DNA from: Kiritimatiellia bacterium
GTDB taxonomy: Bacteria; Verrucomicrobiota; Kiritimatiellia; JAQICX01
Assembly (NCBI GenBank): GCA_027858345.1
Contig: JAQICX010000252.1
Coordinates: 5,297 to 69,296 of the forward strand
Length of the DNA: 64,000 bases
Direction: 5' to 3'
The notes beneath the pieces were generated by a model. The model saw only the letters and a list, made by a program, of their open reading frames with translations, made no database searches and was not told the DNA's origin. How positions within the stretch are numbered: position 1 is the first letter of the stretch; every line of letters begins with the position of its first letter. Below are positions 15,704-55,488 of the stretch, one piece after another. Made by a program: the position numbers and the translations under genes.

Positions 15704-15798
15704 CTTACCAATTTCCTTTCTCTACTTCTGTCCAAAGTTTAATGTTGTTCTCATCAAAATCTAATCTAAAATATGCATTAGTTGCCGACTCATGAGTT
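15704..15798 (-). pseudogene. orphan remnant of the conserved J1 junction of the large secreted-protein family
   Basis: Minus-strand translation gives 'KTHESATNAYFRLDFDENNIKLWTEVEKGNW*'. This matches 'VKTHESATNAFFRLEFDENKLNIWTKDS' of 22328..25528 and 16444..17505. Confidence 0.55.
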
Positions 15799-18319: not shown

Positions 18320-19201
18320 TTAAGGTATAGTTTCCCATTTTTGAGTCACAAGACCTTGAGTAGTACTTAGCACATAAGAATTAGTACTAGCTTTCAAATG
18401 TCTAATCAGTTCAACATTTATTTTCTGAGGTTTTTCCTTTAGCACCTCGACAACATAAACATCAAGCCACCATTTATCTTTCTTCGAAAGAGCAACAAGA
18501 TCTGAAATGTTTTGCAGTTCAATTCTCTTTTTCACATCTTTAAGTTCTTCGTTATCAGAAAAAAAATGTTCTGAAAGTAGCTTAGCTCCATCTTGCAGGG
18601 AAACGTTATATAGATACCGAATAAAACCTGGTTTAGCTTGAATTTTATGTTTTTCAAGAAGTCGTTTATAGGTTGAAAAATCAGCAGAACCATTCTCATT
18701 ATATGCATGTACCTCACCAAGCCAGTTTTCTGCGATTGAAACATCTACCATGTTTGTACATTCTAAAACAGGTAATAAACCACAAGTAATATCATCCTTA
18801 CTCATTGAAAGTTCACGCATAATAATACCAACAATTAATGGAGATCGAGCATCTTTAGATGTTTGACGAAAAAATAGTAGCTGCCTCATTATCTCTGGAC
18901 CATCATCTGACAGTAAACGTGAAAAAGAGTTTAGTTTTTCTTGAAGTTCTTCTTTAGTGTCAACTGCCAGAAACTCCACATTATTGGATGATACTAAACT
19001 AAGTAAGAGTTCCTGTGCCTCAATATGTGGTTTAATACTTGTGTGATTTTTTTTCTTATTAGGTTCTTGAGCATAAATACATACAGAAAATAAAATAAAG
19101 ACTATAGTTAGCACAGCAATACCAGTAAATCGATTAACGATACAGTTATTGAATTGAATATCAGGTATACCAATTTCATTGTTTTTTACATTTGTGTTCA
19201 T
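18320..19201 (-). CDS. secreted/membrane-anchored helical 'partner' protein, paralog 3 (candidate immunity or foldase)
   Basis: Shares 'QLLFFRQ' and a C-terminal 'KWWLDVYVVEVLKEKPQ' block with 19654..20466 and 21395..22306. It has an N-terminal hydrophobic segment. Confidence 0.55.
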   Translation of the reverse strand: MNTNVKNNEIGIPDIQFNNCIVNRFTGIAVLTIVFILFSVCIYAQEPNKKKNHTSIKPHIEAQELLLSLVSSNNVEFLAVDTKEELQEKLNSFSRLLSDDGPEIMRQLLFFRQTSKDARSPLIVGIIMRELSMSKDDITCGLLPVLECTNMVDVSIAENWLGEVHAYNENGSADFSTYKRLLEKHKIQAKPGFIRYLYNVSLQDGAKLLSEHFFSDNEELKDVKKRIELQNISDLVALSKKDKWWLDVYVVEVLKEKPQKINVELIRHLKASTNSYVLSTTQGLVTQKWETIP

Positions 19202-19208
19202 AATAATT

Positions 19209-19568
19209 TTATCTTTCTATCTTGAGTTTAAGCATACTTGTAGTAGGCGTAAGAACGATTGGGTAATCATCAATGGTGCCATGCGTAACTGATGGAGTTG
19301 GTATATCAACATTCCAACCTAAGTTTTGCCCTGGTGGGTCAGTCGCATCACCAGAAAGTCCCGTAACAGCTGTCTGCCAAAAATTTACATGATATTCACT
19401 CGATGGCGGATATTTTGTTTCGGCATTCACATCAATTTCAGAGTCATTTTCAATAGCATCAATATATGCAGTGAATTTGATTGTAAAAGAGCCTATAGTG
19501 GAGCGATTATCATTAAGTCGCTTTGCAAGATCATATACCGAGCCTCCACCATGACTATAACCAATCAT
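19209..19568 (-). pseudogene. N-terminally truncated alpha/beta-hydrolase (lipase-like) C-terminal module
   Basis: It starts exactly at the 'GYSHGGGSVYDLA' nucleophile-elbow motif and is homologous to the last 120 aa of 22328..25528. No upstream homology remains. Confidence 0.55.
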
Positions 19569-19653
19569 AGCTATTTGATTAACAAACTGGTTTAATACTG
19601 TAGTCTTTCACCCCCCGCGACACCGTGAACTGACATAACAAAAAGCCTGTTTC

Positions 19654-20466
19654 TTATTCAAAGTTTATTTGTTCGTTTTGGATTTTTTGAACCATGTTAC
19701 TGACGATATAATTATTGCTAAGTTCGAATTCTTTAATAATTTCTGGAACTATAAGTTTAGGTTTTTGGCTCATTAACTCCAATATATATAGCTGTATCCA
19801 CCATTCTGTATTATCAGCAAGCACCTTAATCGTTTTGGATTTGTCAGAGTATTTTGTTTTATCCATAAGTGATTTTGCTTTATATTTACTAAAATTGATA
19901 TTTGCAAAGGTTGACAATGCACTCTCTGGTGATGTTGTATACATATATTTTACGAGCTCCATATTTTTTGTATACATATTTTTTTGTATTAGATTCTTAT
20001 AGTGATTAAATTGATATGAATGTTTTTTTTGATCATAGTCAATATTTTCAAGCCATTCGTAAATCTCTGCTTTCATAACATCATTTGTTGTTCCAATATA
20101 CGGAATAATTCCAGCATACTGATCTGTTTTTGAAATATTTAATTGTTCCATAATATATAATGGCAACAATTTCTCCATTTCATTATTAGCATTCACCTTG
20201 AAAAATAGTAATTGTGCAATAAACTCTGAATTCCCTCCTGATTCTTCTTTAAAATCATTTAGTTTTGCTTTAAGTACAAACTCTGATGTTATTCCATCTG
20301 GAAATAATTTCTGTCTTTCTAATAAATTTGTTGAACTCAACATTTGCAAAAAACATTGGACTTGTTCGTTTGGATTAATTACTTGATTCTTTACTTTTAT
20401 TTGTTCTTCTGCATTTCCAAAAGATATAATCATAATAGTTCCCAATAAAATTAATTTTTTATACAT
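19654..20466 (-). CDS. secreted helical 'partner' protein, paralog 2
   Basis: Signal peptide. Shares the 'IAQLLFFKV' and C-terminal 'EWWIQLYILELMSQKPKL' blocks with its paralogs. Confidence 0.55.
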   Translation of the reverse strand: MYKKLILLGTIMIISFGNAEEQIKVKNQVINPNEQVQCFLQMLSSTNLLERQKLFPDGITSEFVLKAKLNDFKEESGGNSEFIAQLLFFKVNANNEMEKLLPLYIMEQLNISKTDQYAGIIPYIGTTNDVMKAEIYEWLENIDYDQKKHSYQFNHYKNLIQKNMYTKNMELVKYMYTTSPESALSTFANINFSKYKAKSLMDKTKYSDKSKTIKVLADNTEWWIQLYILELMSQKPKLIVPEIIKEFELSNNYIVSNMVQKIQNEQINFE

Positions 20467-20485
20467 TGTTTTTCTTCCTTTAATA

Positions 20486-21398
20486 TTATTTTGTAATTAC
20501 GGACATAAGCTGTCCCTCTATACCGTTTAAAACAACAGGCAAATCATCTATAGTCATGTGTGTACACGTTTGTTGTGCCGCATCAATATTCACTTCTGCC
20601 GGATCTCCTAAAGCCGGATTAGCGATCAACCCTCCATCTAGTCCGTAATCAAACCAGTCACTCAAAGGATTTGCTACACCTTCCTGATAATACGTAACAT
20701 GATATTGAGACCCAGGAGGTCGTCTGTTTTCTTGCGATGATGATACTTGAGTAACAGCATCTATATATCCAGTAAAGCCAATAGAAAACGTACCAATTGC
20801 TGACCTATTAGTATTCAAGCGTTCGGCGAGATCATGGGTGGAGCCGCCTCCATGGCTATATCCAAAAATAGCAACATTTGAAATATTTCTCATTTGTATA
20901 GCGTTTACAATCTCATCATAGACTTGCCCGTCCCCATTGTTCTGTACATTATCTTCTCCATACATATGAACATCATAACCTTGCGAAAACAGATCAACAG
21001 CTAAGTTAAAAGTTCCTTCATTTGGAGCTGCTGGATCAATAGGATTGTCCTGAGATTCTCCCCCTAAAGCAATTACAATACTTGTAAATGGATAAAAATG
21101 AATTTTGTCCGACTCAACATCTATACTGCCTACCCTTGCAATAAACTCAAGATCAAGCAGTGCCGCCTGCTGGATTTTCCACCCATACTGTTTTCGTGTC
21201 ACTGCTGAATGTTACTGTTGCCTCTGTTCCTGAATCTAATATGGCATTCCCCATACTCTGGCTGTCCCACACCTTGATATTTGTGTTATTGCGTTTAAGC
21301 ACATAGGTCAAGCCTGCTGGAGCAGGATACGGTTCGGCTTTTAATTCAACTTCAATAAGATCATTTTCATTTGCACCAGTTTCGGTATCTCCATTCAC
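20486..21398 (-). pseudogene. orphan J2 + alpha/beta-hydrolase C-terminal module, frameshifted by a 1 bp insertion near 21160
   Basis: ORFs 21153..21398 and 20486..21202 together are collinear with residues 765-1066 of 22328..25528 (about 60-70% identity). The 'GYSHGGGSTHDLA' motif is retained. Confidence 0.6.
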
Positions 21399-22306
21399 TC
21401 TGATTCCTGCACCGGGATCTTACTTTTGTTTTCATACTTATTGTTTTTCTCAATTTCATGAACAACATCAAGAACAGCAGTATTATCACTCTTTTTTAAT
21501 TGTTTCATTAATTCAGGAGTGCTAAGCTCTGGATTCTTTTTAATCTTCTCGGCAACATAAAGTTGTATCCACCATTCTGGACGTTTTGAAAAGTTAGAAA
21601 GAGCATTAGTAACATTTGTATTAATAGGAGGTAAAGGTTTTGATAATCGATGCTTTTTTGCTTTAGAGTCACTGCGTATTATTTCAGCAGATTCTATTAA
21701 GTTAGTTTTTGCCTTATCGTTGTCATTAACAAGAGAGAGAATTAGTGATTTAAGAGCTTCATCCGGAAGACCACTATACATGTACTCAATTAGAGCTTTA
21801 GGCGGATCGTATTTCCGTGCCGTTAGGTAAGCTTCAAATGGCTGGTAGTATCCTTCTGCAATCTTACTATTTCCTCGTATTCCATCAAGAATTTCTCTTG
21901 TCTCATCATAAACAGTGGGATTATCAGTTTCTAAATACATAGCAACTGCCTCTATAATGTTAGTGTCAGAAACAGATTTAATTAAAAAAGATCCAATAAT
22001 CATTGTTGCATGATATTTTTTTTCATCTTTTATAATAGTAACACGATACAAAATTAGTTGCGGAATAATTTCAGCAATATTCGACTGTGTGCTTTTTAAT
22101 TTTTCAATAGATTTCATAACATCTTCCTCTGATGCTTGCTTTTTCCAATGGCGTAGCAAAATGGAAGTAGTCTGCTCAAACTGTTCTTGTACTTCGGGTT
22201 CAGCAACAAGCTGTTTTCCATCTTTATTTATTTGTTCTGCATTTGCTACGTGTAAAAGACACATAAACAAAACAATTTCTATTATCAATCTTACTTTTGT
22301 TTTCAT
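21395..22306 (-). CDS. secreted helical 'partner' protein, paralog 1
   Basis: Signal peptide 'LIIEIVLFMCLLHVANA'. The C-terminal block is 'EWWIQLYVAEKIKKNPEL'. Its stop codon overlaps the start of the downstream orphan module. Confidence 0.55.
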   Translation of the reverse strand: MKTKVRLIIEIVLFMCLLHVANAEQINKDGKQLVAEPEVQEQFEQTTSILLRHWKKQASEEDVMKSIEKLKSTQSNIAEIIPQLILYRVTIIKDEKKYHATMIIGSFLIKSVSDTNIIEAVAMYLETDNPTVYDETREILDGIRGNSKIAEGYYQPFEAYLTARKYDPPKALIEYMYSGLPDEALKSLILSLVNDNDKAKTNLIESAEIIRSDSKAKKHRLSKPLPPINTNVTNALSNFSKRPEWWIQLYVAEKIKKNPELSTPELMKQLKKSDNTAVLDVVHEIEKNNKYENKSKIPVQESE

Positions 22307-22327: not shown

Positions 22328-25300
22328 TTACGGATTAACATGTCCTATAAGTTGATTTATAACACCATTTATAACATTTAGATGGTCATCTATGTTGCCA
22401 TGTTCCAAGTTTGCCCCCCATGCCGTCGTTGTAACATCTAGTTCAAAATCTGCCCCTGGAACAGGTCCACCACCCAATTCAAGAACTCCATTATTTTGAT
22501 AATAATTTCCAAGAAAAGCAGTACCTGGAGGCCTTCTATTTTCCTGTTCCGCAAGTGGCTGCTTAACGGCATCAATATAAGCCGCATAAGTAATAGTATA
22601 CTCGTGGTTATTAAGATTCACAGCCAGATCATATGTAGACCCACCTCCATGGCTGTAGCCAAAAACTGCAATCTGTGTAACATTTCGATTGTTAACAGCG
22701 TTTTCAACTTCTTCATAAGCAACTCCTCCCCGATCTTCAGAGGCAACAACATCCTCATTGTACATATGAACGTCATAGCCCTGTTGATAAAGATCTATTG
22801 CAATCTCGAATGTACCATGATTACCTGGATCATTAACAGGATCATCTGGATTCTGCCCTTCACCACCCAACACAATAACTACACTTGTAAACGGATAAAA
22901 ATGAATTTTGTCCGAGTCGACATCTATACTGCCTACCCTTGCAACAAACTCAAGATCAGCTGTGCCACCATCTGGATTCTCAACCCATACTGTTTTAGTA
23001 TCACTGCTGAATGTTACTGTTGCTTCTGTTCCTGAATCTAATATAGCATTCCCCATACTCTGGCTGTCCCATACCTTGATATTTGTGTTATTGCGTTTAA
23101 GTATATATGCTAAGCCTGCTGGAGCAGGATATGACTCAATTTTTAATTCAACTTCAATAAAATCATTTTCATTTGCACCAGTTTCAGTATCTCCATTCAC
23201 TCTAATTCCTGTACCTGGATTTTCTTCCTGATCATCAGGAACTGCATGTTTCTGGAATGGATTTCCATAACCAACACCTTCAGTCTGCGGACGGTATGCT
23301 GTCATGCCTATCGAAATAAAACTAAAACTAACATCCTCTGAATCCAATTCATAATTATCTAGCAAATATGTAATTCCAACACTATGCACCCCCGGCTGAA
23401 GACCTTGAACATAAAGTGTTTTCTCCGCTCCTTCTTCAAAAATATCATCATAAGAATAATTATGATATGCCTGAAGTCGATTGCCATTAGGAATATATGA
23501 ATTTGTTCTTGTTATCATTGCGTTACTGTCTTTTGTCCAGATGTTTAGTTTGTTTTCATCAAACTCTAATCTAAAGAAGGCATTTGTTGCACTCTCGTGA
23601 GTTTTGACTAAGAATGGCATAAAATCTCCAGCATTGTCAAGGTCATTAACATTATTTGTGCCGTCGTTGTCAGCATCTTCAAGTCCGGTAAACATGGAGA
23701 TATTGTCAGATTGGTTTGAAACAACAAGAGCACAGGAGGTAAGAGAATAAGATGCTGAATGATATTCGTCACCACTAAACTCCAGATCAACAATCATATC
23801 TCCTAAATCATCGCTACAGCCTATGACTGAGAAACCTTCACTGGTTGAATAAGGAGACTCCTCAATATCAATTTCCCGAGATATGTCGCCTAATGTAAAA
23901 ATATCAGTATTCCCATCAGGTGTAATATCCAATGTTCCATTAAGACCATAATTTGCACACACGCTGTGCAAAAAATCTATATTAACAGACGCATTAGGTG
24001 AATTTAAAATATTGATTACATTTTCCGGACACATCTCAGAATCAATTATCCATGTTCCATGACTGTAAGCAACATAGATGGATACATCAATATCATCGGA
24101 ATCGGGTTCCATCTTTTCCTCTGTAGCCTCAACTGAAATATTATATTGGTAATACCCAGCATGATCAAGGGTTGTCAGACTGTCAACGCCCGTATCCAAC
24201 GAAAAAGAAGCATACTTAAAGGCATCCTGCAGTCCAATAATTGGACTGCCAATAATTGTACTGCCGAAATCAATTGTATCCACGTCACTGTCCTGTTGAA
24301 AAACAGAACCGCTTCCTGTGGCAGTGCAAGTTATTGGTTCTGGATTAAAAATATATGGTGTTGTGCCATACAATAAAGCCGGACTACCTATACTTACTTT
24401 TGCATTAACGTTCAGATCGCCATACAAATTGTTACATCCACACAAAATATAATAATAATAACCATCATATAATGAACCTATATCAACTGTCATTGTCGGT
24501 ATGTAAAACGAAACATCTACTCCTCCTCCACCAGCAGTTGTTTCCATCGTCAGGGGTGAAGAGGTTGTAGTCATCGTCAAAGGTGAAGTAGAACTGCTTG
24601 ATTCTTTAAATTGGCTATTCCCAAGATAAGGATAATACCAACCATAACACGTGATTACCCAAGGATCCATTGTATACACTCTAAAGGCAACATCAGATTC
24701 CGTAAGTTCAGGAGAATAATTTGACTCAACTTCAAGATTTCTAGACAACTCGACATTCAACGGTTGTCCTATAGAACAAATTTTATTCGTAAATAATATA
24801 TTATTTGTATATGATGTGAGGAAGATATTGGTTGAACTACTCCCCATGATCATTAACATATAATCATTATCATCCACTGCAGATAGCTCCATGATACAAT
24901 TAACCACTGTCTCTGCATACTCATTGTTGCTATCTAATGGGTCAGTATGATTAAAATGAACTTCGTCATAGTCATTTGTACTATCTCCGTCTGTATCAAA
25001 CAACCATGGATTTGTTCCATATTGCATTTCTTCAGCATTATTAAGTTCATCTTCGTCAGGATCTCCAAACAAAGATTCTCCTTCAAAAGAGTTGGAAACA
25101 CATGGATTGAAGTTTGTATACATGACTTCAAAAAGATCTGGCAGCTTATCACCATCTGAGTCAAATAGTTTGGCATTCAACCGTTCGATACCATTAGTTG
25201 AAATTGAATTTGTGCAGTAATATTCAAAATTGTTTGATAGACCATCATTATCCCAGTCTGGCGGGGTATAAGCCTTAGGATCAAAACCATAATAAATTTC

Positions 25301-25528
25301 AACAATATCATAAGTACCATCACCATCTGTATCTGAATTAGTGATGCTAGTTCCATACAGTAGAGTTTCTCGACCATCGCTTATTCCATCACCATCTGTA
25401 TCATACAAAGTCCAGCATGTATAAAACCTTGAAGTATCATTGGTAGCATTATAGTCCACCCATGTGTAAACATTAGTTGAAAGATCTACTTCTTCTGTAT
25501 CCTCAATAAACCAATTCCTGTTGACCAA
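22328..25528 (-). CDS. large multidomain protein: TSP3-type Ca-binding repeats, Ser/Thr/Cys-rich middle, J1 and J2 junction motifs, C-terminal alpha/beta-hydrolase (GxSxG lipase/esterase-like) domain
   Basis: It has many 'DTDGDG..D', 'DSDGDKLPD' and 'DTDGDSTNDYDE' aspartate repeats, and a 'FGYSHGGGSTYDLA' nucleophile elbow near the C-terminus. The ORF opens at a TTG immediately after two stop codons. Confidence 0.7.
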   Translation of the reverse strand: MVNRNWFIEDTEEVDLSTNVYTWVDYNATNDTSRFYTCWTLYDTDGDGISDGRETLLYGTSITNSDTDGDGTYDIVEIYYGFDPKAYTPPDWDNDGLSNNFEYYCTNSISTNGIERLNAKLFDSDGDKLPDLFEVMYTNFNPCVSNSFEGESLFGDPDEDELNNAEEMQYGTNPWLFDTDGDSTNDYDEVHFNHTDPLDSNNEYAETVVNCIMELSAVDDNDYMLMIMGSSSTNIFLTSYTNNILFTNKICSIGQPLNVELSRNLEVESNYSPELTESDVAFRVYTMDPWVITCYGWYYPYLGNSQFKESSSSTSPLTMTTTSSPLTMETTAGGGGVDVSFYIPTMTVDIGSLYDGYYYYILCGCNNLYGDLNVNAKVSIGSPALLYGTTPYIFNPEPITCTATGSGSVFQQDSDVDTIDFGSTIIGSPIIGLQDAFKYASFSLDTGVDSLTTLDHAGYYQYNISVEATEEKMEPDSDDIDVSIYVAYSHGTWIIDSEMCPENVINILNSPNASVNIDFLHSVCANYGLNGTLDITPDGNTDIFTLGDISREIDIEESPYSTSEGFSVIGCSDDLGDMIVDLEFSGDEYHSASYSLTSCALVVSNQSDNISMFTGLEDADNDGTNNVNDLDNAGDFMPFLVKTHESATNAFFRLEFDENKLNIWTKDSNAMITRTNSYIPNGNRLQAYHNYSYDDIFEEGAEKTLYVQGLQPGVHSVGITYLLDNYELDSEDVSFSFISIGMTAYRPQTEGVGYGNPFQKHAVPDDQEENPGTGIRVNGDTETGANENDFIEVELKIESYPAPAGLAYILKRNNTNIKVWDSQSMGNAILDSGTEATVTFSSDTKTVWVENPDGGTADLEFVARVGSIDVDSDKIHFYPFTSVVIVLGGEGQNPDDPVNDPGNHGTFEIAIDLYQQGYDVHMYNEDVVASEDRGGVAYEEVENAVNNRNVTQIAVFGYSHGGGSTYDLAVNLNNHEYTITYAAYIDAVKQPLAEQENRRPPGTAFLGNYYQNNGVLELGGGPVPGADFELDVTTTAWGANLEHGNIDDHLNVINGVINQLIGHVNP

Positions 25529-26575: not shown

Positions 26576-26869
26576 TTTGGTTCTTCGTAGATTATTGTGG
26601 ATGAGAATTGTTAATAATAGACATTTATATTCAAAAATAAGGGGCAACGCCCCGAAATAGCAAAGCCTAGGGCAGCGCCCTAGGTATATAACAATGCAAT
26701 ACGCATTAAGGGGTGAAGCCCCGAGATAAACATGCTTTAAAGATAGCTTATCTCAGGCTTTCAGCCCTTAATTATTATGTTATATGTTAACCCAGAGCGT
26801 TGCTCTGGGCTATGTTATTACGGGCTTTCAGCCCTGAATATGCTAGCAATATCAATATAATTATCCACA

Positions 26870-43699: not shown

Positions 43700-45415
43700 T
43701 TATTTTTCTGCAATTAATGTTAAAGAGTATCCTGGGACAGTGATTTCTCCTGTTGATAATGGATGAATTTCACCTTTTGGGTTATCAAAGCAGATTTCAG
43801 CTGTGACCAATGTTTTATTACTGTTTAATAAAGTTTCTGCAGGTGGAATAATCATTGCGTGGTCGCTTTTATTGATAACCATTAGGCTTTTTTTGCCATC
43901 TAATCTTTTTATAGCCATCAGCTCTATTTTAGATGAATCAGCAGATATGTCTTCGCAAAGAATTCCGCAGAACCATGGTTTACCCCAAAGGAAAAGGTAT
44001 GCAGGAGTGCGGAGTTGCCCATCGCTTCCCATCAGCCCATAGATATTATCTTTAATATGCCAGACCATCATGCCGGTTGCACCTTTTAAAGCAACTTTTT
44101 TGATAACCAAGGCATCAAAGATTGCCCCGACATTTGTTTTCATTCTTTCATCACGAGTTGTCCATGTCCAGCTTATGTTATATTCCGTTAAGAATGATTC
44201 AAACTTCTTATTAGGATACATTTCTTTTGCTTTTGAAATAAAGTATTCTGCATGTCCGGCCATTGTGTCTGTGGTATCAAAAACTTTCTTATTGCTTGCA
44301 TATGCATCGCCGACTGCATAATTATGCCATGTTATAAAATCAAAATTTTCTCCGCATGTTGATAGGAAGCCTTCAACCCAAAGTGGCTTTGGCCAGGTTA
44401 GAGCAGGACCACCAACTAGAATTGTTGAATCGGCCTCTTTCATTTTCTTTGCAATCTTATTATGAAGATTCCAAAGTTTAGGTAATTCACCGGCTTTTTC
44501 AAATGTGTTATCGCATTCATTTAGGACTTCCCAATACTTTATTGGCAGCTTTTGGTCAATTCTTATATATTTTACAAGCCGTGCACAATATTCCGCAATT
44601 CTATCCTGATCAGTTTCAGTCATGGTTTTTGCATCAATGTTCATCCATTTGGGCCATCCTGGAATATTAATTATTATTTCACTGTTGGTATAAGCATATG
44701 CGTCTTTAAATGCGGTTCCGATTTTTTCATAGTCCCAGTCCTGTTTCGTTTCATCAGACCATGTATCGGCACTGCCGGCATGATGTAGACGAATAAATGC
44801 CGGTTTTAGTTCTGTTATGAATTCATTTACATCTTTACTTGAAGGATTCTTGTGAATCTCATAATCAGCGACTGACCAGTGTTTGCCATTTAGCTCACCA
44901 ATTGACTTGTCCCAGTTTACACTAACATCAATCTTTTCTGCTTTTTTTGTTTCATCAGGTTTCGATGTTGGTTTTGGAGGAGTTGTATTTTTGTCTTCAG
45001 AAAATACTATTGCATCAATTGCAATTGTTTTTCCCTTTGTTGGTCCGGCAATCACAAGTAATTCGTTGCCGAGCATCTCGGGTTGAAAATATCCAAAACA
45101 ACTCCATTGCCACTCTTGAGGTTTGCTCCATATCCACGACAGTTCTTTTTGCGTTCCATCGGTTGACTGTTTGAGACATATTGGCCCGTTTCTATGCCTG
45201 ACCCAAATTGCAACTGGTTGTTTAGGACTTTTTGTTTTTACCAGAGGTTGCCAATCTTTATTTATAACAACCGCTTTGTCGTTTAAAGCACCTTCGATGA
45301 TTTGAACAGAACCATTTGCTTTAATATCTTCGCCTTGAATTAATTCGCCTTTTGGTGTTGCTGCTGATAATGTTATACATATTAATAGTAGCAATGTTTG
45401 AATTGTATATCTCAT
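43700..45415 (-). CDS. secreted glycoside hydrolase, clan GH-A TIM barrel (GH39/GH5-like), with N-terminal beta-sandwich domain
   Basis: Acid/base 'IKYWEVLNECDN' and nucleophile 'FLTEYNISW' lie about 110 aa apart. This spacing and the motifs are classic for GH-A. The family within the clan is uncertain. Confidence 0.6.
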   Translation of the reverse strand: MRYTIQTLLLLICITLSAATPKGELIQGEDIKANGSVQIIEGALNDKAVVINKDWQPLVKTKSPKQPVAIWVRHRNGPICLKQSTDGTQKELSWIWSKPQEWQWSCFGYFQPEMLGNELLVIAGPTKGKTIAIDAIVFSEDKNTTPPKPTSKPDETKKAEKIDVSVNWDKSIGELNGKHWSVADYEIHKNPSSKDVNEFITELKPAFIRLHHAGSADTWSDETKQDWDYEKIGTAFKDAYAYTNSEIIINIPGWPKWMNIDAKTMTETDQDRIAEYCARLVKYIRIDQKLPIKYWEVLNECDNTFEKAGELPKLWNLHNKIAKKMKEADSTILVGGPALTWPKPLWVEGFLSTCGENFDFITWHNYAVGDAYASNKKVFDTTDTMAGHAEYFISKAKEMYPNKKFESFLTEYNISWTWTTRDERMKTNVGAIFDALVIKKVALKGATGMMVWHIKDNIYGLMGSDGQLRTPAYLFLWGKPWFCGILCEDISADSSKIELMAIKRLDGKKSLMVINKSDHAMIIPPAETLLNSNKTLVTAEICFDNPKGEIHPLSTGEITVPGYSLTLIAEK

Positions 45416-46098: not shown

Positions 46099-47742
46099 AT
46101 GAGAAAAACATATTGTAATCCAATAAATTTGGACTATCGTTTTCAGCCTGAAAAACGGGCAAAAGAAATTTTTAGAGAGGCAGCCGACCCATCAATAATA
46201 TTTTATGATGGATATTATTGGATGTTTATTTCTAAATCAAAGGGATATTATTATTCAAAAGATATGAGGGATTGGTCTCTTGTAAAAACATCGGTTTTAC
46301 CACTTGAAGATTATGCACCAGATGTGCGTGAAGTTAATGGAAAAGTCTGGTGTACGGCTTCAAGGACGGCTGAGCCGTCGCCCATTTATGTGTCTGATAA
46401 ACTTATGGATGGTGATAGCTGGAAACTTGCGGGTTCACCGTTCCCTTGGCATGATCCTCACCATTTTCAGGATGTTGATGGTCGTGTTTATGCATATTGG
46501 GGATGTTCAAATAAGGTGCCGATTCGAGGTGTAGAGTTTGATGCAGAGACCTTAGAACCAGTTGGTGATGTTATTGAACTGTTTGGTGGAAACACAGCTG
46601 AACATGGATGGGAACGTACCGGTGTAGATAACAGTACTGATGCTGCTCCATTTATTGAAGGTCCTTGGGTGACGAAGTATGATAATAAATACTATATGCA
46701 ATATGCCGGTCCAGGAACCGAGTGGAATGTTTATGCAGATGGGGTATATATTGCAGAATCACCATTAGGTCCGTATGAATATCAGAAGCATAATCCATAT
46801 TCTCTTAAGCTTGGAGGTTTCATTAATGGTGCTGGACATGGAAGCACTTTCAACGATTCTTACAATAACTACTGGCATACTGCAACTATGTCAATCAGTA
46901 TGAAATTTGATTTTGAAAGACGAATTGGAATATGGCCTGCCGGATTTGATGCTGACGGAGTTATGTTCTGCAATTGTCGTTTTGGAGACTACCCAACAAA
47001 GTTTGGTGATGGCAAGTGGAATGCAAATGAGGACTCTTTTGCCGGCTGGATGCTTTTGTCTTACAAAAAGCCAGTGACATGTTCCAGTGAAAATGGTGCC
47101 CATGCATCGAATGCACTGAATGAGGATATCCATAATGGTTGGATTGCAGAGTCCTGTCAAGATGAGTGGCTTCAGGTGGATTTGCAAACACTTTCTACTA
47201 TCAATTCAATACAGGTGAACTTTGGAGAATATGATTGCCGGTTTGTTGATGACAATCCTTATCATCAGTATGAGATTCTTGTATCTTGCGACGGTAAACG
47301 CTGGGACATCATTGTTGATAAGAGTGAAAATGTGTGCGATGTTCCTCATGACTATATTGAGTTTGATACAGCTGTTCAGGCACGATATGTTAAGATAAGC
47401 ATTAAGCATATGCCAGCTGGCGGCAAATGTTCACTTTATGGACTACGTGTTTTTGGTAAAGGAAGCGGAACAATTCCTGTTGCCCCGCAAGAATTGTCTG
47501 TAGCCACGGTGGATAAACCTAATACTGCACTATTCAAATGGACTCCAGTTGAAGGAGCTTCTGGTTACAATCTACGTTGGGGGATTGCCAAGGATAAACT
47601 TTATAGTGATAGAATGATCTATGACGATTGCCAAATTGTAATCAGTTCCTTCAGCAAAAACACCACATACTATATCGCCGTTGAAGCCTTCAATGAAAAT
47701 GGCATCTCCGAACTTTCTGACTTTGTCCAAGTCGTTTTTTAG
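46099..47742 (+). CDS. GH43-family glycoside hydrolase (beta-xylosidase/arabinofuranosidase-like) with C-terminal F5/8-type-C (discoidin) and FN3-like domains
   Basis: 'AADPSIIFYDGYYWMFIS' is the GH43 catalytic-Asp motif at blade 1. 'NGWIAESCQDEWLQVDL...YVKISIKHM' is the discoidin domain. 'KWTPVEGASGYNLRW' is FN3. Confidence 0.8.
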   Translation: MRKTYCNPINLDYRFQPEKRAKEIFREAADPSIIFYDGYYWMFISKSKGYYYSKDMRDWSLVKTSVLPLEDYAPDVREVNGKVWCTASRTAEPSPIYVSDKLMDGDSWKLAGSPFPWHDPHHFQDVDGRVYAYWGCSNKVPIRGVEFDAETLEPVGDVIELFGGNTAEHGWERTGVDNSTDAAPFIEGPWVTKYDNKYYMQYAGPGTEWNVYADGVYIAESPLGPYEYQKHNPYSLKLGGFINGAGHGSTFNDSYNNYWHTATMSISMKFDFERRIGIWPAGFDADGVMFCNCRFGDYPTKFGDGKWNANEDSFAGWMLLSYKKPVTCSSENGAHASNALNEDIHNGWIAESCQDEWLQVDLQTLSTINSIQVNFGEYDCRFVDDNPYHQYEILVSCDGKRWDIIVDKSENVCDVPHDYIEFDTAVQARYVKISIKHMPAGGKCSLYGLRVFGKGSGTIPVAPQELSVATVDKPNTALFKWTPVEGASGYNLRWGIAKDKLYSDRMIYDDCQIVISSFSKNTTYYIAVEAFNENGISELSDFVQVVF

Positions 47743-47931
47743 CCATACTTTGAAAATTCGTTTGTTAATATCAAGTAATTGCTACTAAGAAAATTACTTC
47801 AAAAAGCGTATCAAATCATATGTAAAGGCGGTTAGACGAGAAAAAATCACGTTTTCGGTCTTTTTTTGTTGTGAATGACTATAGTTTTTGTTAAATTTGC
47901 CTCAAGTTAAAAAACAATAGAGGTCAATATA

Positions 47932-49071
47932 ATGTTAGTAAGTTTTACAGTAGAAAATTTTTGTTCAATAAAAGAAAAAAATACGCTTAGTATGGAGCGG
48001 ATCAAACGCTTAAAAGATCTTGAAGAAAATATTGTAGAAGATGCAGGGAAAAGTGGTTTGCTTAAGTCTGCTGTTATCTACGGTGCTAATGCTAGCGGTA
48101 AATCTAATATTGTACGTGCTTTGGCATATATGAGGAAATTTATTGGCAATTCGCATGAAAACAGAAGTGGTGATGATATTGATATATATGAGCCTTTTCT
48201 GTTAAACGAGCAGTCAAGAGAACAACCTACTCTTTTTGAAATAAAATTTGTTGTAAATGAAAAAATATATCGCTATGGTTTTAAGCTTGATAAGGAAAAT
48301 ATTCATTCCGAGTGGCTGTTTGAAGGCAACAAAAGTCTTTTTCTTCGTACCAAACAAGAGTTTGACTTAAAAGGAGATGGCAAAACAGCTAAAGATATTA
48401 TTGAAAAAACAAAAGAGAATATGCTTTTTCTATCAACCTGCGATCAGTGGAATGTGAGTTTTGCTACTGAACTAATGAAAAAGTTTTTTAATAAACTTTT
48501 GGTTGTTCCTGGTCATGCAGATGGTTTGTTCACCACTGATACTCATAGATTTGTTGAAGAATCGCTAGAGAATAAGCAAAAAGTCATAGATTTGTTGAAG
48601 TTTGCAGATACAGGTATAACAGACTTGGAGATTGAAGATTTAAAAATTCAGATGCAACATGAAGAATTTGGTTCGTTAAGTTTAAATCAGGAATCAGAAG
48701 GTACGAAAAAGTTGTTTAATCTTGCTGGTTTATATTTTGTATCTATAGCAAATGATAATATTTTAGTTGTTGATGAGTTTGATGCTCGTTTGCACACCTC
48801 TCTTGCTAAAGCTTTAATTAATATGTTTCAACAAAATTCAAACAAGGCTCAACTTATTATAGCCAGTCATGATACTAATATCATGACTAAAGAGCTATTT
48901 CGTAGGGATCAGGTTTGGTTCACAGAAAAAGATATCAAGCAACAAACACACCTATATTCACTAGCTGAATTTAAAATTCGTAATGATGAGGTATATGAAA
49001 AAAATTATTTAGCAGGAAAATATGGTGCAATTCCATTCTTTGGTGAATTTGATTTCTTGGAAACGGAGTGA
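47932..49071 (+). CDS. AAA_21/ABC-type ATPase of an OLD/AbiL-like two-gene module
   Basis: Walker A 'GANASGKSN', signature-like 'SEGTKK', Walker B 'ILVVDEFDARLH', H-loop 'IASHD'. It is 4 bp from the next gene. Confidence 0.75.
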   Translation: MLVSFTVENFCSIKEKNTLSMERIKRLKDLEENIVEDAGKSGLLKSAVIYGANASGKSNIVRALAYMRKFIGNSHENRSGDDIDIYEPFLLNEQSREQPTLFEIKFVVNEKIYRYGFKLDKENIHSEWLFEGNKSLFLRTKQEFDLKGDGKTAKDIIEKTKENMLFLSTCDQWNVSFATELMKKFFNKLLVVPGHADGLFTTDTHRFVEESLENKQKVIDLLKFADTGITDLEIEDLKIQMQHEEFGSLSLNQESEGTKKLFNLAGLYFVSIANDNILVVDEFDARLHTSLAKALINMFQQNSNKAQLIIASHDTNIMTKELFRRDQVWFTEKDIKQQTHLYSLAEFKIRNDEVYEKNYLAGKYGAIPFFGEFDFLETE

Positions 49072-49074
49072 AAT

Positions 49075-49746
49075 ATGCCAATTGATATTAAACAATTTCA
49101 AGATCAAGCCAAATCAAGGGTATATGATGAAGTTGATGAACGACAGTATTTTTTTATTCTTACAAATGGGAAAGTAACAGAGAAAGTATACTTTGAAAGG
49201 TTTAAACACAAACTTCATAAAGGTATGGTTCTTAATGTTGAATTTAAGAATAAGTCACCAGATGGATTATCTAAGTTTGCAGAAAGGCGTTTGAGAAACC
49301 AAAGCATTGTATATGATGAAATTTGGGTAGTTTTTGATAAAGATGATTTTGATTGTTTTGAAGATACTGTAAAGAAATTGTCTAATGGTAACAAGTTTAG
49401 CGTTGCCTTTAGTAATGAATGCTTTGAAATTTGGTTGTTGCTGCACTTTTGTGATATCAATGAGGCTTTGAATAGAGTTAAGTGTTTGAGTTTATTTAAA
49501 GAACAGATTAATTTACATAGCATAAAGAAAAAGTATAGCCAGAGCAGTCAATTAAAGAAACAAGCTAATATTAATGATATTTTAGATGTTGTTGAGAAAT
49601 CTGGTTGCCGAGAAGATGCTATTAATAGGGTAACGACATGGCAGAATAACATGGATGATATTGAGTTTTGTAAAGTTAATCCGTCAACAACTGTTTATAA
49701 ATTAGTTGATAAACTTGATAAGGCTATTCAAAATTATCAAGAATAG
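49075..49746 (+). CDS. RloB-like (OLD-family TOPRIM-like) protein, partner of the ATPase
   Basis: 'IWVVFDKDDFD' and 'SNECFEIWLLLHF' are the hallmark RloB motifs. Confidence 0.7.
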   Translation: MPIDIKQFQDQAKSRVYDEVDERQYFFILTNGKVTEKVYFERFKHKLHKGMVLNVEFKNKSPDGLSKFAERRLRNQSIVYDEIWVVFDKDDFDCFEDTVKKLSNGNKFSVAFSNECFEIWLLLHFCDINEALNRVKCLSLFKEQINLHSIKKKYSQSSQLKKQANINDILDVVEKSGCREDAINRVTTWQNNMDDIEFCKVNPSTTVYKLVDKLDKAIQNYQE

Positions 49747-49759
49747 TTTGGGGGGGGGA

Positions 49760-50526
49760 AACTGTTTTTTAGCACTTGGCGATTCCGTGGCACTCAGGAT
49801 ATGCAGAGCAACCCCAGAATTGTTGTCCTGCATTCTTGCCTGTTTGGGCAGTACGTAAAACCATTGGTTTTCCACATTGTGGACAATTGGGGATTAGTGT
49901 TTGAGTACCCTCTGTGTTTTGTTGGTTTTTCTGTTGGGTTCGAGTCGCGAGTCTAGCGGTTGCCAGCTGTTCGCTGTAGCCTCCGTCGCTGACAAATTGT
50001 TCCTCAAGTCCTGCAATTTGGCGATCCAGCAGATAGTTTGCCTGATGGATCAGACAAATAATCGCATTTGCTCGAATCTCTGGATTCTCGTTCTCTAACC
50101 ATGGGGCGTATAACGCCCAGCGTTGTTCATCAGACAGATCAGTCAGATTTTATCGATCTTTTTTGTGGGTGCGAGGGACGTTGCGCACTGCCATGGAATC
50201 TTCACTGTTTGGAGTCCACTGTTTCAGATGACGATGTCTAAGAAAGTCTTCGTAGTCGAGTAGCAACTCTTCTAGGCTAGCCCTTGCAACGTTTACAAGG
50301 CGGAGTTCGGTTTGAGATGAAGAGTTGCGGCTGCTCGGCTTCCTTCGGCAATGTTTTGCCTTCCTGAGCGAGCTGCTTGTACCATTTGATCAACCGTACG
50401 TGAACGTGAACTCAAAAACTTTTCACAAAACCAGTAAGTTGCATCATAAATGATTGTTGCAGTCTGAAAACTGCAGGTGTTTCGGTAGCCACCGCTTGGC
50501 CTAAGTTTTTTGTGCGTTGTCGTCAT
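49760..50526 (-). pseudogene. frameshifted paralog of the four-helix-bundle (Avd/23S-IVS-like) + zinc-ribbon gene
   Basis: About 90% nucleotide identity to 54745..55488 over about 760 bp. A 2 bp insertion near 50325 truncates the ORF after 77 aa. Confidence 0.75.
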
Positions 50527-50531
50527 TTTAT

Positions 50532-51914
50532 CTATTCCTCGGGGAGTTTGTCGATTTTCTTGATGCAGGAGGCTACTACGAATGCTAATGTTATTAGGAC
50601 AATTATTATGATTATATATAGTGAGATTTTTCGTGTTAAGAAGGAGAATGCGGCTTTTGGTGATTTGTTATATTCCGGGTTTTGTTCCTGTTGTCCAAGC
50701 TTGACCATGTTAAAGGTTGGATTTGGTAGGGCATTGAGTATACGATTAATATCATACTTTGGTGCTGCGATTTGAGTTCCACCGTAATATACAGTCAAAT
50801 CAGTAAGTGGTTCTGGCATCAAGAACTCTGCATAATATACAGGACCTTGAACATTGACTTTTTCTATCTCAATTGGATGTGAGTCTTCGTTATATATTAT
50901 TAGCTTTATATAGTGAGTTCTAGTCTCTGCAAAACTGATTTTTAGATTTTCTTTTGAGATGTTTGCAATATGCAAACTGCTGATTTCAGCACTTGTAACC
51001 CTGTGCCAAGTCTCTTGATCTGTTGATTTTAAAATTTGAGTCTTTCTGAAAAAGTTATCTGATGTTGGAATAATATCCAATTTGGATATTGGTTGTCTAA
51101 ATGTGTCAATGACGATTTCAGTTGTTTGTTTAACTTGCTCTGTTTTGATGTGCTGGGTTTCAACAATTTGAGTTATCGGTTGTTTGTCTGTATATACATA
51201 TGAAATTTCAGTTAGTACAATGTTGTTGATGTGAAACTGCTTGTTGTAGACTGTCTTTTTCTTTATCTCGGAGAAGTCTTTCCCCAACTGTTTCTCGGTA
51301 ATTATTTCCATCTTCTCAGCTGTTTTTGCCTCTGAAACATTGGAAATTACAAATTTATAAAAGGTTGCATTGGTGTTTTCAATTGTTATTGAATCTTTTC
51401 TAAGTTTAATTATGTCTGAGTAGTCATATATGGGTTGCTGTTTTTGAGGAGATTTGAAATTGTCAATTGAATCGCCTGAATAGACAACAACATCCTTGTC
51501 AAAGTTTCTGTCATGTGTATTGAATGTCACTAGAGAAGGGAAGGTTTCTTCTTTACTCTTTTTGACAATGATTTCAATACTATTATCAGCTTCGTTCTTT
51601 TTTAGTGAAACAATTTCTGATGGACATGTTTTGGCAATCTGCTGCTTCTTTTTCTTGAACTGCTTGTTTACCCTGAATGGTACTTGCTTGTCACCAAGAA
51701 TTCTTATGCAGGAGAAGCTGTCGATGTTTTCATATATGGTTTTATCTAACTGGAATGCAGTTAGTGTTGAACCTTTTACATCTTCCACTTTGCGCATGTA
51801 CTGTAACTCATTGATTACTGTTTTTTCTGTTGCTGCAATGGTTATGGTGAGTGTTGCAAAAAGTGCTGCCAATGTTAATAATTTTTTACTCATCGTCTGA
51901 CTCCTTAATTTCAA
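50532..51914 (-). CDS. secreted protein with C-terminal TM anchor (DUF3999-like by architecture)
   Basis: 460 aa with a signal peptide and a C-terminal hydrophobic helix + KK motif. Its start overlaps the upstream membrane gene. The family name is from recall of the typical DUF2339/DUF3999 pairing. Confidence 0.5.
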   Translation of the reverse strand: MKLRSQTMSKKLLTLAALFATLTITIAATEKTVINELQYMRKVEDVKGSTLTAFQLDKTIYENIDSFSCIRILGDKQVPFRVNKQFKKKKQQIAKTCPSEIVSLKKNEADNSIEIIVKKSKEETFPSLVTFNTHDRNFDKDVVVYSGDSIDNFKSPQKQQPIYDYSDIIKLRKDSITIENTNATFYKFVISNVSEAKTAEKMEIITEKQLGKDFSEIKKKTVYNKQFHINNIVLTEISYVYTDKQPITQIVETQHIKTEQVKQTTEIVIDTFRQPISKLDIIPTSDNFFRKTQILKSTDQETWHRVTSAEISSLHIANISKENLKISFAETRTHYIKLIIYNEDSHPIEIEKVNVQGPVYYAEFLMPEPLTDLTVYYGGTQIAAPKYDINRILNALPNPTFNMVKLGQQEQNPEYNKSPKAAFSFLTRKISLYIIIIIVLITLAFVVASCIKKIDKLPEE

Positions 51915-54744: not shown

Positions 54745-55488
54745 TTAGCATTTGGTTGTTCCATGGCAATCAGGATATGCTGAGCAACCCCAAAATTGTT
54801 GTCCTGCGTGATTGCCCGCTTGGGCTGTACGCAAAACCATAGGCTTTCCGCATTTCTGACAATCAGGGATTAGTGTTTGAGAGTTGCTGTTTTTGTGTTG
54901 TGCACGGGATGCAAGTCGTGCTGTTGCCAGCTGTTCGCTGTAACCACCATCATTGACAAATTGCTCTTCAAGTCCTGCAATTTGACGATCTAGCAAATAG
55001 TTCGCCTGATGAATCAGGCAAATGATAGCATTGGCACGAACTTCTGGATTCTCGTTTTCTAACCATGGGGCGTATAATGCCCAGCGTTGTTGATCGGACA
55101 GATCTGTCAGATCCGACTGATCATTTTTGTAGTTTCGCGGTACATTACGCACTGCCATGGAATCTTCACTGTTTGGAGTCCACAGTATTAGATGGCGATG
55201 CCTAAGAAAGTCTTCGTAGTCGAGTAGCAACTCTTCTAGGCTAGCCCTTGCAACGTTTATAAGGCGGAGTTCTGTTTGAGATGATGTTGCGGCAGCCCGG
55301 CTTCCTTCTGCAATATTTTGCCTTCCTGAGCGAGCTGCTTGCACCATTTGATCCACGGTACGTGAACGTGAACTCAGAAACTTCTCACAAAACCAGTAAG
55401 TTGCATCATAAATGATTGTTGCAGTCTGAAAACTGCAAGTATTTCGGTAGCCACCGCTTGGCCTAAGTTTTTTGTGCATAGTCTTCAT
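54745..55488 (-). CDS. four-helix-bundle protein (TIGR02436/Avd-like) fused to a C-terminal topoisomerase-type C4 zinc ribbon
   Basis: 'QMVQAARSGRQNIAEGSRAA' and 'LEELLLDYEDFLRHRHL' match the 4HB family. The C-terminus is 'CQKCGKPMVLRTAQAG...FWGCSAYPDCHGT'. Confidence 0.65.
   Translation of the reverse strand: MKTMHKKLRPSGGYRNTCSFQTATIIYDATYWFCEKFLSSRSRTVDQMVQAARSGRQNIAEGSRAAATSSQTELRLINVARASLEELLLDYEDFLRHRHLILWTPNSEDSMAVRNVPRNYKNDQSDLTDLSDQQRWALYAPWLENENPEVRANAIICLIHQANYLLDRQIAGLEEQFVNDGGYSEQLATARLASRAQHKNSNSQTLIPDCQKCGKPMVLRTAQAGNHAGQQFWGCSAYPDCHGTTKC

Follow-up and report, generated by a model that had tools for sequence, protein, structure and literature searches.

A diverged AbiL-type ATPase and RloB gene pair as a probable anti-phage module in a Kiritimatiellia bacterium

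The window analysed here, the whole 64 kb stretch of DNA, contains two adjacent genes on the same strand, coding for an ABC-type ATPase and for a protein of the RloB family (Table 1). The ATPase gene ends with a TGA codon, followed by AAT and then by the ATG of the RloB gene. The initial annotation had placed the two genes 4 bp apart on the + strand; its ORF coordinates and strand are right, with the second start four bases after the first end, and the real gap is 3 nt. A GGAG motif is found 8 nt upstream of the RloB start, within the 3' end of the ATPase gene. An identical 3-nt spacing is present in the pairs of the relatives, and the adjacent, co-oriented arrangement was found in 8/8 other loci, related or distant, in contexts that are unrelated to each other. 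For the distant RloB homologs, which belong to other phyla, an AAA_21 gene is located directly upstream and overlaps in 4/4 cases, with surroundings that include a resolvase with LPD38, and a terminase.

DNA homology with all four relatives starts at window position 47836-47838, upstream of the ATPase gene. When the four upstream regions are aligned, conserved blocks stand out in this 5' region, among them an invariant 17-mer (GAGAAAAAATCACGTTT); an AGAGG ribosome-binding site is found 11 nt before the ATPase ATG. Reading the same alignment, we assign a putative sigma-70-type promoter (TTGTGA, 17 nt, TAAATT) upstream of the ATPase gene; the consensus promoter scan listed no + strand site in the cassette 5' region. 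A terminator scan of 47500-50600 found none. In terms of base composition, the two genes have a GC content of 32% and 30%, compared to an ORF mean of 37.3 +/- 4.0%.

Table 1. Position of the gene pair, its conserved motifs and the neighbouring features in the window.
Feature	Position	Strand	Length or basis
AbiLi-type ABC (Rad50/SMC-like, AAA_21) ATPase gene	47932..49071	+	379 aa
AbiLii / RloB-family gene, putative TOPRIM-type nuclease effector	49075..49746	+	223 aa
Conserved cassette 5' region	47836..47931	+	DNA homology, alignment of four upstream regions
ATPase Walker A, G51-S58 (GANASGKS)	48082-48105	+	invariant columns
ATPase signature, E254-K260 (ESEGTKK)	48691-48711	+	invariant columns
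ATPase Walker B, V279-E282, then ARLH; position for D281-E282	48772-48777	+	invariant columns
ATPase H-loop, S312-N316; position for H313	48868-48870	+	invariant columns
RloB N31	49165-49167	+	conservation counts
RloB T35-E36	49177-49182	+	conservation counts
RloB D88-K-D90	49336-49344	+	conservation counts
RloB S113-E118	49411-49428	+	conservation counts
G9 homopolymer, boundary feature	49750..49758	.	within the 25 bp separating the convergent 3' ends of RloB and the decayed IVP-like gene
Frameshifted IVP-like paralog, flank, outside the system	49764..50529	-	DNA alignment, 2-bp insertion
Intact 247-aa four-helix-bundle (23S_rRNA_IVP) plus Zn-ribbon gene	54745-55488		Pfam domains

The first protein is assigned to AAA_21 by Pfam (6.8e-34, 118.7 bits, cutoff 27) and to AbiLi by PADLOC (PDLC02335, E 4.2e-96, 319.8 bits, residues 1-377), with the next-best PADLOC model 64 orders of magnitude weaker. 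Motif columns were scored in a 39-sequence family alignment, where Walker A, signature, Walker B, D-loop and H-loop are all intact. The ABC-type Walker A/B, signature and H-loop motifs named in the initial annotation are all present, in invariant columns of the family. The protein is without approximately 37 residues of a family insertion (arm) just before the signature motif, and falls some 50 aa short of the family median of 430. The pair had been called short, which applies to the ATPase and not to RloB, whose length is typical of its family. The AF2 model of the ATPase (pLDDT 84.8) has its best Foldseek matches in Rad50, PtuA and SMC, with E ~1e-11.

As for the second protein, Pfam reports RloB (PF13707, 9.2e-35, 121 bits, cutoff 31.5) as a full-length match, with residues 26-214 on profile positions 1-195, and PADLOC reports AbiLii (PDLC02337, 1.5e-24). 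In NCBI it is already entered under the RloB family, with a Kiritimatiellae MAG as its source. Both RloB motifs quoted in the initial annotation are in place, with 'VVFDKDD' at residues 85-91 and 'SNECFEIWLLLHF' at residues 113-125. D88, D90, N114 and W120 are invariant (120/120 homologs), and the group E36, D88, D90, N114 and E118 is kept in 119-120 of the 120, E36 itself in 119. The AF2 model (pLDDT 90.5) predicts a beta-alpha x4 core with D88-K89-D90 (DxD) at the end of beta3; the C-terminal helical domain corresponds to residues 134-222.

Position 31, the 'CEG' Glu that is the canonical TOPRIM glutamate, is E in 95/120 homologs and Asn in 9/120. The window protein has Asn31 here, and a second Glu, E36, five residues on. 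N31 is common to all four pair-bearing lineages, and both ORFs are intact in each of them. In the hhalign register, N31 and E36 correspond to E400 and E404 of Bp OLD, where the single mutation E400A did not discernibly affect cleavage (PMC6755086). Given N31 and the missing ATPase arm, the models may not fully describe how the pair is regulated or how it catalyses.

In favour of a putative TOPRIM fold for RloB are its motifs, the topology of its model, published work and some profile signals, the last being weak. With hhalign, the RloB profile had a weak match at the correct motif in a 24-sequence OLD C-terminal profile (P=0.016, control P=0.17), and no match to the single P2 Old sequence. For the OLD C-terminal profile, fragment P0243 was used in an exhaustive representative search. 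Pfam Toprim and Toprim_4 each had sub-threshold matches in 4/51 RloB members (best E 0.008), and the mad4 model matches 1/51. In the literature RloB is placed in the Toprim superfamily (PMC12065111; HHpred in PMC10440598), and the relationship is published as significant (PMC12065111, PMC10440598, PMC13064643). Foldseek of the RloB model against the PDB returned generic alpha/beta folds (best E 0.013) and no TOPRIM match, the sole match in BFVD was another RloB protein, and a PDB profile search with the RloB alignment returned nothing meaningful. No solved AbiL or RloB structure was found in PDB searches with RloB and the ATPase.

Purifying selection acts on both genes, with dN/dS of 0.11-0.19 for the ATPase and 0.19-0.35 for RloB; this holds for every comparison made, also for those that are not saturated. 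The combination of an AAA_21 ATPase and RloB had been proposed as an AbiL-class candidate defence pair, with PADLOC as a suggested check. This proposal stands, since PADLOC, which returned both AbiL components, and Pfam agree, and since the pairing is conserved across phyla. By its sequence, the pair belongs to the known AbiL anti-phage family, of which it is a diverged yet ordinary representative.

Downstream of the pair we found a decayed copy of an IVP-like gene, 83-93% DNA-identical to the intact gene located further along the window. A 2-bp insertion breaks its frame, and the tblastn match to it splits at residue 68, so a decayed duplicated gene does lie beside the pair, as had been noticed. 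Direct repeats D1-D3 were found in the comparison of the two copies. In three of the related loci (L004, L007 and L009), the IVP-like copy survives in fragments or is missing; it decays in every lineage and is an internal control for neutral decay at the AbiL locus. We also asked whether the AbiL system might have the IVP-like gene as a third part, and rejected this because the gene is absent from four distant loci and decaying in close relatives.

The G9 tract sits where the homology between the two IVP-like copies ends, and no other G or C run in the 64 kb reaches 8 bases. Its length is equal in the window and in L001, L002 and L003 (four assemblies). Phase variation was rejected, as the tract is outside both reading frames and does not change in length among these assemblies. 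The tract is present where the initial annotation reported it; being intergenic and invariant in length, it gives no sign of a role, and probably does not belong to the working parts of the AbiL system.

Furthermore, no defence families were found in the ten nearest neighbours or in the low-GC block at 13-26 kb, and there are no hsd genes among the window ORFs scanned. The neighbours of the pair within the window are housekeeping genes, and the window was rejected as a defence island, contrary to the typical defence-island neighbourhood first suggested. The character of a defence hotspot is visible only through comparison with relatives.

One such relative, L015, was found by a genome scan with DUF3999 as bait. 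Its DUF3999 is 84-86% identical to those of L004, L007 and L009, and its DUF2339 is 88% identical to that of L004. L015 is without the AbiL pair. The slot is filled instead by a type I restriction system, and the cargo comprises HsdR, a YgjP-like peptidase and a Schlafen/AlbA_2 protein. A genome scan with a 2-sequence DUF2339 alignment (poorly conserved N-terminal patterns) gave no matches, and a metagenome scan with the DUF3999 bait gave, among the matches listed, three loci, all known already. The AbiL similarity matrices are incongruent with the flank-protein matrix. The pair is accessory, its site being occupied by other defence cargo in a relative, and is not part of the core genome of all relatives, an outcome that would have spoken against a defence role. 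The restriction system in L015 points to selection for defence cargo at the AbiL site. Fragments of the IVP-like gene mark most cargo junctions in this slot, which is located beside the DUF3999/DUF2339 operon.

We then compared the pair with known systems. AbiL of the Lactococcus lactis plasmid pND861, modelled in PADLOC, likewise has the ATPase (ABC/AAA_21) first and the RloB-family protein second. The window pair differs in being chromosomal, in a PVC-group MAG host, with the shorter ATPase and the Asn in place of the TOPRIM Glu described above. When plasmids were searched with tblastn, none of the matches came from Lactococcus, and identity to the homologs obtained is <38%. According to a citation in PMC13064643 (Deng 1999), AbiL acts by abortive infection in Lactococcus and requires its two genes. 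RloB is also paired with an AAA ATPase in RloA/RloB of the Campylobacter jejuni type I R-M system, the namesake of PF13707, whereas the window pair is outside any hsd locus and only L015 carries type I R-M at this position.

PARIS, composed of the ABC ATPase AriA and the DUF4435 TOPRIM tRNase AriB, is also a two-gene operon in which the ABC ATPase is split from a TOPRIM-type effector. It is considered the best mechanistic template for the AbiL pair, and AbiL has been classed among the systems that combine an ABC ATPase with TOPRIM (PMC11464382). The term “PARIS-like” used in the initial annotation fits this general architecture and nothing more specific. DUF4435/AriB has no match in the window RloB or in 51 family members, even at E<=10, and AbiLii superposes poorly on AriB (PMC13064643). 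The “AriA” model, a generic 304-position AAA_21-like profile, matches the ATPase at 6.5e-32, against the far stronger AbiLi value, and AriA is missing from the PDB sequence matches of the ATPase and from its top 50 structural matches. The ATPase is nearest to Rad50 and to PtuA of Septu.

The combination of an ABC ATPase with a putative TOPRIM protein is shared with the OLD family (P2 Old; Class 1 and Class 2 OLD; Gabija GajA). The “CEGxxTE ... DxD” pattern of RloB parallels “VEGKTE ... DCD” in P2 Old, and hhalign aligns exactly these segments, with the weak profile similarity given above. OLD is a single polypeptide, whereas the window ATPase and RloB are two ORFs divided by a stop codon and the intergenic gap, and the helical domain that follows the putative TOPRIM part in RloB is unrelated by sequence. 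Next, the ATPase model is as near to PtuA of Septu/retron PtuA-PtuB (8eea, 8ee4, 8sux, 9n6c) as to Rad50, and PtuA is among the few sequence-level PDB matches of the ATPase; the partner in Septu is the HNH nuclease PtuB, in contrast with the RloB/TOPRIM protein of the window. Lastly, the window ATPase and RloB match the corresponding A and B partners of the PADLOC candidate systems PDC-M12, HEC-01, PDC-M38 and MADS (MAD3/MAD4). The A components are matched by the ATPase at 1e-27 to 1e-10 and the B components weakly by RloB family members (PDC-M12B by 19/51), all far weaker than the AbiL models. These matches show a wider superfamily of ATPase plus RloB/DUF4276-like pairs.

We consider it likely that the pair forms an AbiL-type module against phages, self-contained and inserted in the chromosome. 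As for its possible mechanism, a single promoter-bearing cassette (~47836-49746) would encode the Rad50/SMC-like AbiLi and a translationally coupled AbiLii, the latter with a predicted TOPRIM-type metal-binding centre of E36, D88-x-D90 and N114/E115/E118. In the uninfected cell, an ATPase oligomer would hold the nuclease bound and inactive. A phage-derived cue may shift the nucleotide or conformational state of the ATPase, by which the nuclease would be freed or activated, and the active nuclease would cleave nucleic acid (tRNA, other RNA, or DNA). Cleavage would halt phage production, with the growth of the infected cell as the price. This scheme is drawn by analogy with PARIS, P2 Old, Septu and Gabija, which are characterised systems of an ABC ATPase plus a nuclease; from these we infer that the AbiL proteins physically associate, what triggers them and what they cut, and that the outcome is abortive.

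The pair could instead be a selfish toxin-antitoxin module, with AbiLii as toxin and AbiLi as antitoxin, that persists because its loss kills the cell; the module would bring no meaningful anti-phage benefit to the host. Pairs of an AAA antitoxin and a TOPRIM_OLD toxin do act in this manner, validated by toxicity-neutralisation assays (PMC10440598), and the window pair is solitary among housekeeping genes and kept at one locus in four lineages. However, both activities are compatible, and PARIS does both (PMC13064643). The founding AbiL gives phage resistance, and the slot of the relative holds a restriction system. A purely selfish role seems unlikely to us.

A second alternative is that of an orphaned RloA/RloB accessory of a type I R-M system, normally a partner of Hsd proteins, whose Hsd genes were lost or moved. 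RloB owes its name to ORFs lying within type I R-M loci of Campylobacter (PMC10440598, PMC12065111), and L015 has its type I R-M at the equivalent position. This locus, however, has no AbiLi or AbiLii homolog, hsd genes were found beside the pair in 0/8 related or distant loci, and the pair has its own conserved, putative promoter region. Lactococcal AbiL also reportedly functions from a plasmid without R-M genes, and we find the accessory origin very improbable.

It is equally hard to defend the pair as a catalytically dead or decaying remnant, with its TOPRIM glutamate lost (E31N) and its ATPase arm truncated. N31 is indeed a minority state, the ATPase has its deletion and a decayed gene is found next door. 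Yet that IVP-like copy displays what real decay looks like at this locus, whereas the pair has low dN/dS throughout and intact ORFs in the four N31-sharing lineages. The other metal-site residues of RloB are also intact, and the Bp OLD mutant tolerates the corresponding change.

Finally, a vertically inherited housekeeping ATPase-nuclease for DNA repair or processing (cf. Rad50/Mre11, RecF/RecR) is scarcely credible: the structural matches to Rad50 and SMC heads, and the presence at the same locus in four lineages with a divergence similar to the flanks, which could reflect long vertical retention, are set against the absence from L015, the incongruent similarity pattern, homologs that turn up on plasmids, in phage records and next to genes of mobile elements, and AbiL as best family with NCBIfam repair models far below their cutoffs.

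A separate suggestion concerns the clade formed by the window and three metagenomic lineages, in which Asn may replace the metal-A glutamate. This clade would be a variant of AbiL that functions although its TOPRIM centre is non-canonical and its ATPase arm trimmed. Separately, the slot would be a site of defence-cassette exchange in PVC bacteria not described before, where the repeated IVP-like gene would mediate recombination; we hold this combined view as unlikely. If the clade is such a variant, catalysis or activation could differ from the PARIS/OLD template.

AbiL was among the first abortive-infection systems described (1999). The present finding is routine, at the level of annotation, and leaves the current understanding unchanged. 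The comparison of relatives provides a clean, small case of defence cargo being replaced at one chromosomal site, with AbiL on one side and type I R-M on the other, in a phylum that has been little studied. A diverged, compact and apparently functional member from the PVC group widens the diversity of AbiL available for structural and biochemical work. E31N is a natural active-site variant, and could reveal which acidic residues RloB nucleases need.

Both ORFs of the pair were found on the + strand exactly where the initial annotation had placed them (see table). The stop codon of the ATPase gene (TGA, 49069-49071) is followed by three bases, AAT, and then by the ATG of the RloB gene, with a GGAG 8 nt upstream of this ATG, within the ATPase gene. 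The 3-nt gap and internal GGAG form the layout of a putative translationally coupled operon.

All quoted motifs are present. In the ATPase these are the Walker-type GANASGKS (G51-S58), ESEGTKK (E254-K260), VVDEFD followed by ARLH (D281, E282, H288) and SHDTN (carrying H313); in an alignment of 39 family sequences, the columns of all four are invariant or nearly so. In the RloB protein, VVFDKDD spans residues 85-91 and SNECFEIWLLLHF residues 113-125, with D88, D90, N114 and W120 found in 120/120 homologs.

Pfam assigns the first protein to AAA_21 (6.8e-34) and the second, over its full length, to RloB (9.2e-35). PADLOC, run on the proteins, agrees, with AbiLi (4.2e-96, 320 bits) and AbiLii (1.5e-24). 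The NCBIfam scan of both proteins returned no model above its cutoff. Public databases already list both, under the names “RloB family protein” and “ATP-binding protein”, for a MAG that carries the label Kiritimatiellae. Their closest relatives form a small clade with 66-78% identity, beyond which identity drops to about 30-35% for RloB homologs and about 40-54% for ATPase homologs. The candidate AbiL-type defence pair was correctly spotted, recognisable already from sequence, and it is a diverged AbiL member with minor variant features.

Coordinates of the features in the window and in related loci
Feature	Sequence	Position	Strand	Remark
ATPase ORF (AbiLi)	window	47932-49071	+	379 aa
RloB ORF (AbiLii)	window	49075-49746	+	223 aa
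IVP-like copies	window	49764-50529, 54745-55488	-	first copy frameshifted
IVP-like fragments	L004	1-173, 2308-2963, 4845-4968		
IVP-like fragments	L005	233-607, 2742-3107		
IVP-like fragment	L007	8715-8879		
Ice-binding-protein gene (PF11999)	L004	3341-4192		
Ice-binding-protein gene (PF11999)	L009	6946-7845		
Ice-binding-protein gene (PF11999)	L010	793-1692		
GH39-like gene	window	43700-45415	-	571 aa
GH39-like gene	L001	4594-6341		split, 471 + 110 aa
Acido-Lenti-1 (RF01687)	window	26640-26684	-	37.4 bits
Acido-Lenti-1 (RF01687)	window	26791-26835	+	42.7 bits
ORFs without Pfam match	window	22328-25528, 18320-22306, 15038-16428	-	GC 31-37%

The ATPase and RloB genes form a conserved module. 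Three related metagenomic lineages (L004-L006, L007/L008 and L009/L010) carry both genes, again 3 nt apart. An AAA_21 gene also lies directly upstream of, and overlaps, the distant RloB homologs examined (4/4, from Chitinophaga, Desulfovibrio, a Clostridia MAG and a 1-Mb contig). These distant pairs lie in unrelated contexts: one has a resolvase and an LPD38 protein as neighbours, and a terminase is encoded near another. RloB homologs occur on 23 plasmid and 4 phage records, every one less than 38% identical. DNA homology to all four relatives begins at 47836-47838, 96 bp upstream of the ATPase ATG. Within this upstream block, a 17-mer is invariant, and a plausible -35/-10 pair and the ribosome-binding site AGAGG can be recognised. 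A putative promoter here, read from the alignment of relatives, is plausible; a consensus promoter scan listed no + strand site in the block.

The label “PARIS-like” holds for the architecture only, because the ATPase matches Rad50, SMC and PtuA proteins, not AriA. Its model (pLDDT 84.8) retrieves Rad50, SMC heads and Septu/retron PtuA ATPases in Foldseek (E about 1e-11), with AriA, GajA and OLD outside the top 50 structural matches. A PDB profile search gave only weak matches, to a retron/Septu-type “AAA family ATPase” (9n69, 4.6e-5), SMC and PtuA. The ATPase lacks about 37 residues directly before the signature motif, where a coiled-coil or insertion emerges in Rad50/SMC-like ATPases and AriA (PMC11464382).

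Evidence on the proposed TOPRIM/OLD fold of the RloB protein, whose absence the initial annotation had named as a refutation, is mixed, with layout and motifs in its favour and no significant structural match. The AlphaFold model is confident (pLDDT 90.5, pTM 0.84) and consists of four strand-helix units and then a helical domain; the DxD lies where strand 3 ends, and the conserved E36 just past strand 1. In Foldseek, no TOPRIM or OLD structure of the PDB matched significantly (best E 0.013, generic alpha/beta folds) and BFVD yielded only another RloB protein; the PDB sequence-profile search found nothing. Using an OLD C-terminal profile (P2 Old and 23 representatives), hhalign placed RloB “LIVCEG..TEp” on OLD “vLLvEG-KTE”, the right motif with weak statistics (P=0.016; P=0.17 for the ATPase half as control). 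When 51 RloB members were scanned singly, Pfam Toprim and Toprim_4 appeared below threshold in 4 each (best E 0.008), among the few recurrent sub-threshold families. Members also match weakly mad4 and the B partners of PDC-M12, HEC-01 and PDC-M38.

The glutamate of the family “CEG” motif is E in 95/120 homologs and Asn (N31) in the RloB protein of the window and its three relatives. In the hhalign register, N31 aligns with E400 of Bp OLD, which is the canonical Toprim Glu and a metal A ligand, and E36 aligns with E404. Replacing E400 or E404 of Bp OLD singly by alanine made no discernible difference; cleavage was lost only in triple mutants (PMC6755086). Since the pair is under purifying selection, a tolerated or adaptive variant is a better reading of N31 than an inactivation. 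The dN/dS values (ATPase 0.11-0.19, RloB 0.19-0.35) include comparisons far from synonymous saturation (L004 vs L007, dS 0.20), which argues for a functional pair rather than a relic.

The decayed duplicated gene beside the pair is real. This copy is 83-93% DNA-identical to the intact 247-aa IVP-like gene, and a 2-bp insertion truncates its frame at 77 codons. It persists as fragments in L004 and L005 and as about 165 nt in L007; it is gone in L009, where no IVP-like fragment was detected. This paralog is a same-locus control for neutral decay. The intact protein combines a four-helix-bundle (23S_rRNA_IVP) domain with a C-terminal topoisomerase-type Zn ribbon, and the two direct-repeat copies bracket the DUF3999/DUF2339 operon. 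In L004, L005 and L007 the fragments lie at most variable-region junctions, flanking the AbiL pair on both sides, and also between the ice-binding-protein gene and DUF3999. At this hotspot, the gene may serve as a recombination substrate, or it may be a selfish gene in decay.

The G9 tract is also present (49750-49758), in the 25 bp that separate two convergent 3' ends. No role is assigned to it, because it is outside both frames and its length is identical across four independent assemblies.

A typical defence-island neighbourhood is absent within the window. The ten nearest neighbours (radical-SAM enzyme, LacI, GH39, GH43, DUF3999, DUF2339, IVP-like protein, Na/Pi cotransporter, histidine kinase and one without Pfam or PADLOC match) gave no specific PADLOC match. 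No defence domains were found in the low-GC block at 13-26 kb, and a run of - strand ORFs, one of them encoding a 1066-aa protein, is without Pfam matches at E<=1e-4. The 64-kb window contains no tRNA genes. An intact GH39-like gene is present in the window and in assembly L002. In L001, whose remaining sequence agrees to at least 99.9%, the gene is split near window position 44040, through either pseudogenisation at strain level or an indel of the assembly.

Flank-like divergence first suggested vertical inheritance. Identity to the relatives is 73-78% for AbiLi, 66-69% for AbiLii, 67-69% for DUF2339 and 56-60% for DUF3999, and the DUF2339/DUF3999 operon adjoins the pair in the relatives too. 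DUF3999 was therefore chosen as a bait unbiased as to AbiL. The metagenome scan had the three known loci among the matches listed. The genome scan gave L015, a MAG labelled Victivallales, which carries the operon, with DUF3999 84-86% identical to L004, L007 and L009 and DUF2339 88% identical to that of L004. Its flanks are far closer to these three loci than any of them is to the window.

The L015 locus has neither the AbiL pair nor the IVP-like gene, so the pair is not core in all relatives, the case that the initial annotation had set against a defence role. The slot that the pair occupies in the window and its three relatives lies at 3459-9061 in L015 and encodes there a YgjP-like metallopeptidase, a type I restriction HsdR and a Schlafen/AlbA_2-HATPase_c_4-Fic_C protein, which is defence-cargo replacement at one chromosomal site. 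The similarity matrices of AbiL proteins and flanks are incongruent. L004 is closest to L009 in DUF3999 (95.9%) and to L007 in AbiLi (95.0%, vs 80.5% to L009), and the three AbiLii proteins are equidistant (about 81-82%; 82% between L004 and L007). This mismatch suggests recombination within or around the AbiL operon. The L015 slot and the matrices speak against vertical inheritance; together with the low GC of the two genes (32.2% and 29.9%, 1.3-1.8 SD under the window ORF mean) they mark the pair as accessory cargo at a site accepting alternative defence systems. In two related lineages an ice-binding-protein gene lies between the pair and DUF3999, so the variable slot takes non-defence, cold-adaptation cargo too.

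The placement of the MAG within the PVC group is uncertain. Window proteins are labelled Kiritimatiellae by NCBI and L015 is labelled Victivallales (Lentisphaerota); L015 is the sole GTDB genome locus from the bait, with DUF2339 67-68% identical to that of the window. The window also has two intergenic copies of the Lentisphaerae-associated Acido-Lenti-1 RNA motif, on opposite strands about 100 nt apart.

Past family membership, the reading is by analogy. In PARIS, which shares the architecture of the pair and differs in its ATPase, the ATPase keeps a TOPRIM effector bound; once a phage protein has triggered its release, the effector cleaves tRNA-Lys (PMC11464382). According to a 2026 preprint, P2 Old is an abortive tRNase, and Septu reportedly cleaves tRNA-Tyr (PMC13096335). 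Pairs of AAA antitoxin and TOPRIM_OLD toxin act as toxin-antitoxin pairs (PMC10440598), and lactococcal AbiL acts after phage transcription (PMC13064643). By analogy, the ATPase would most likely be a sensor or antitoxin restraining the putative RloB nuclease, which infection would most likely release.
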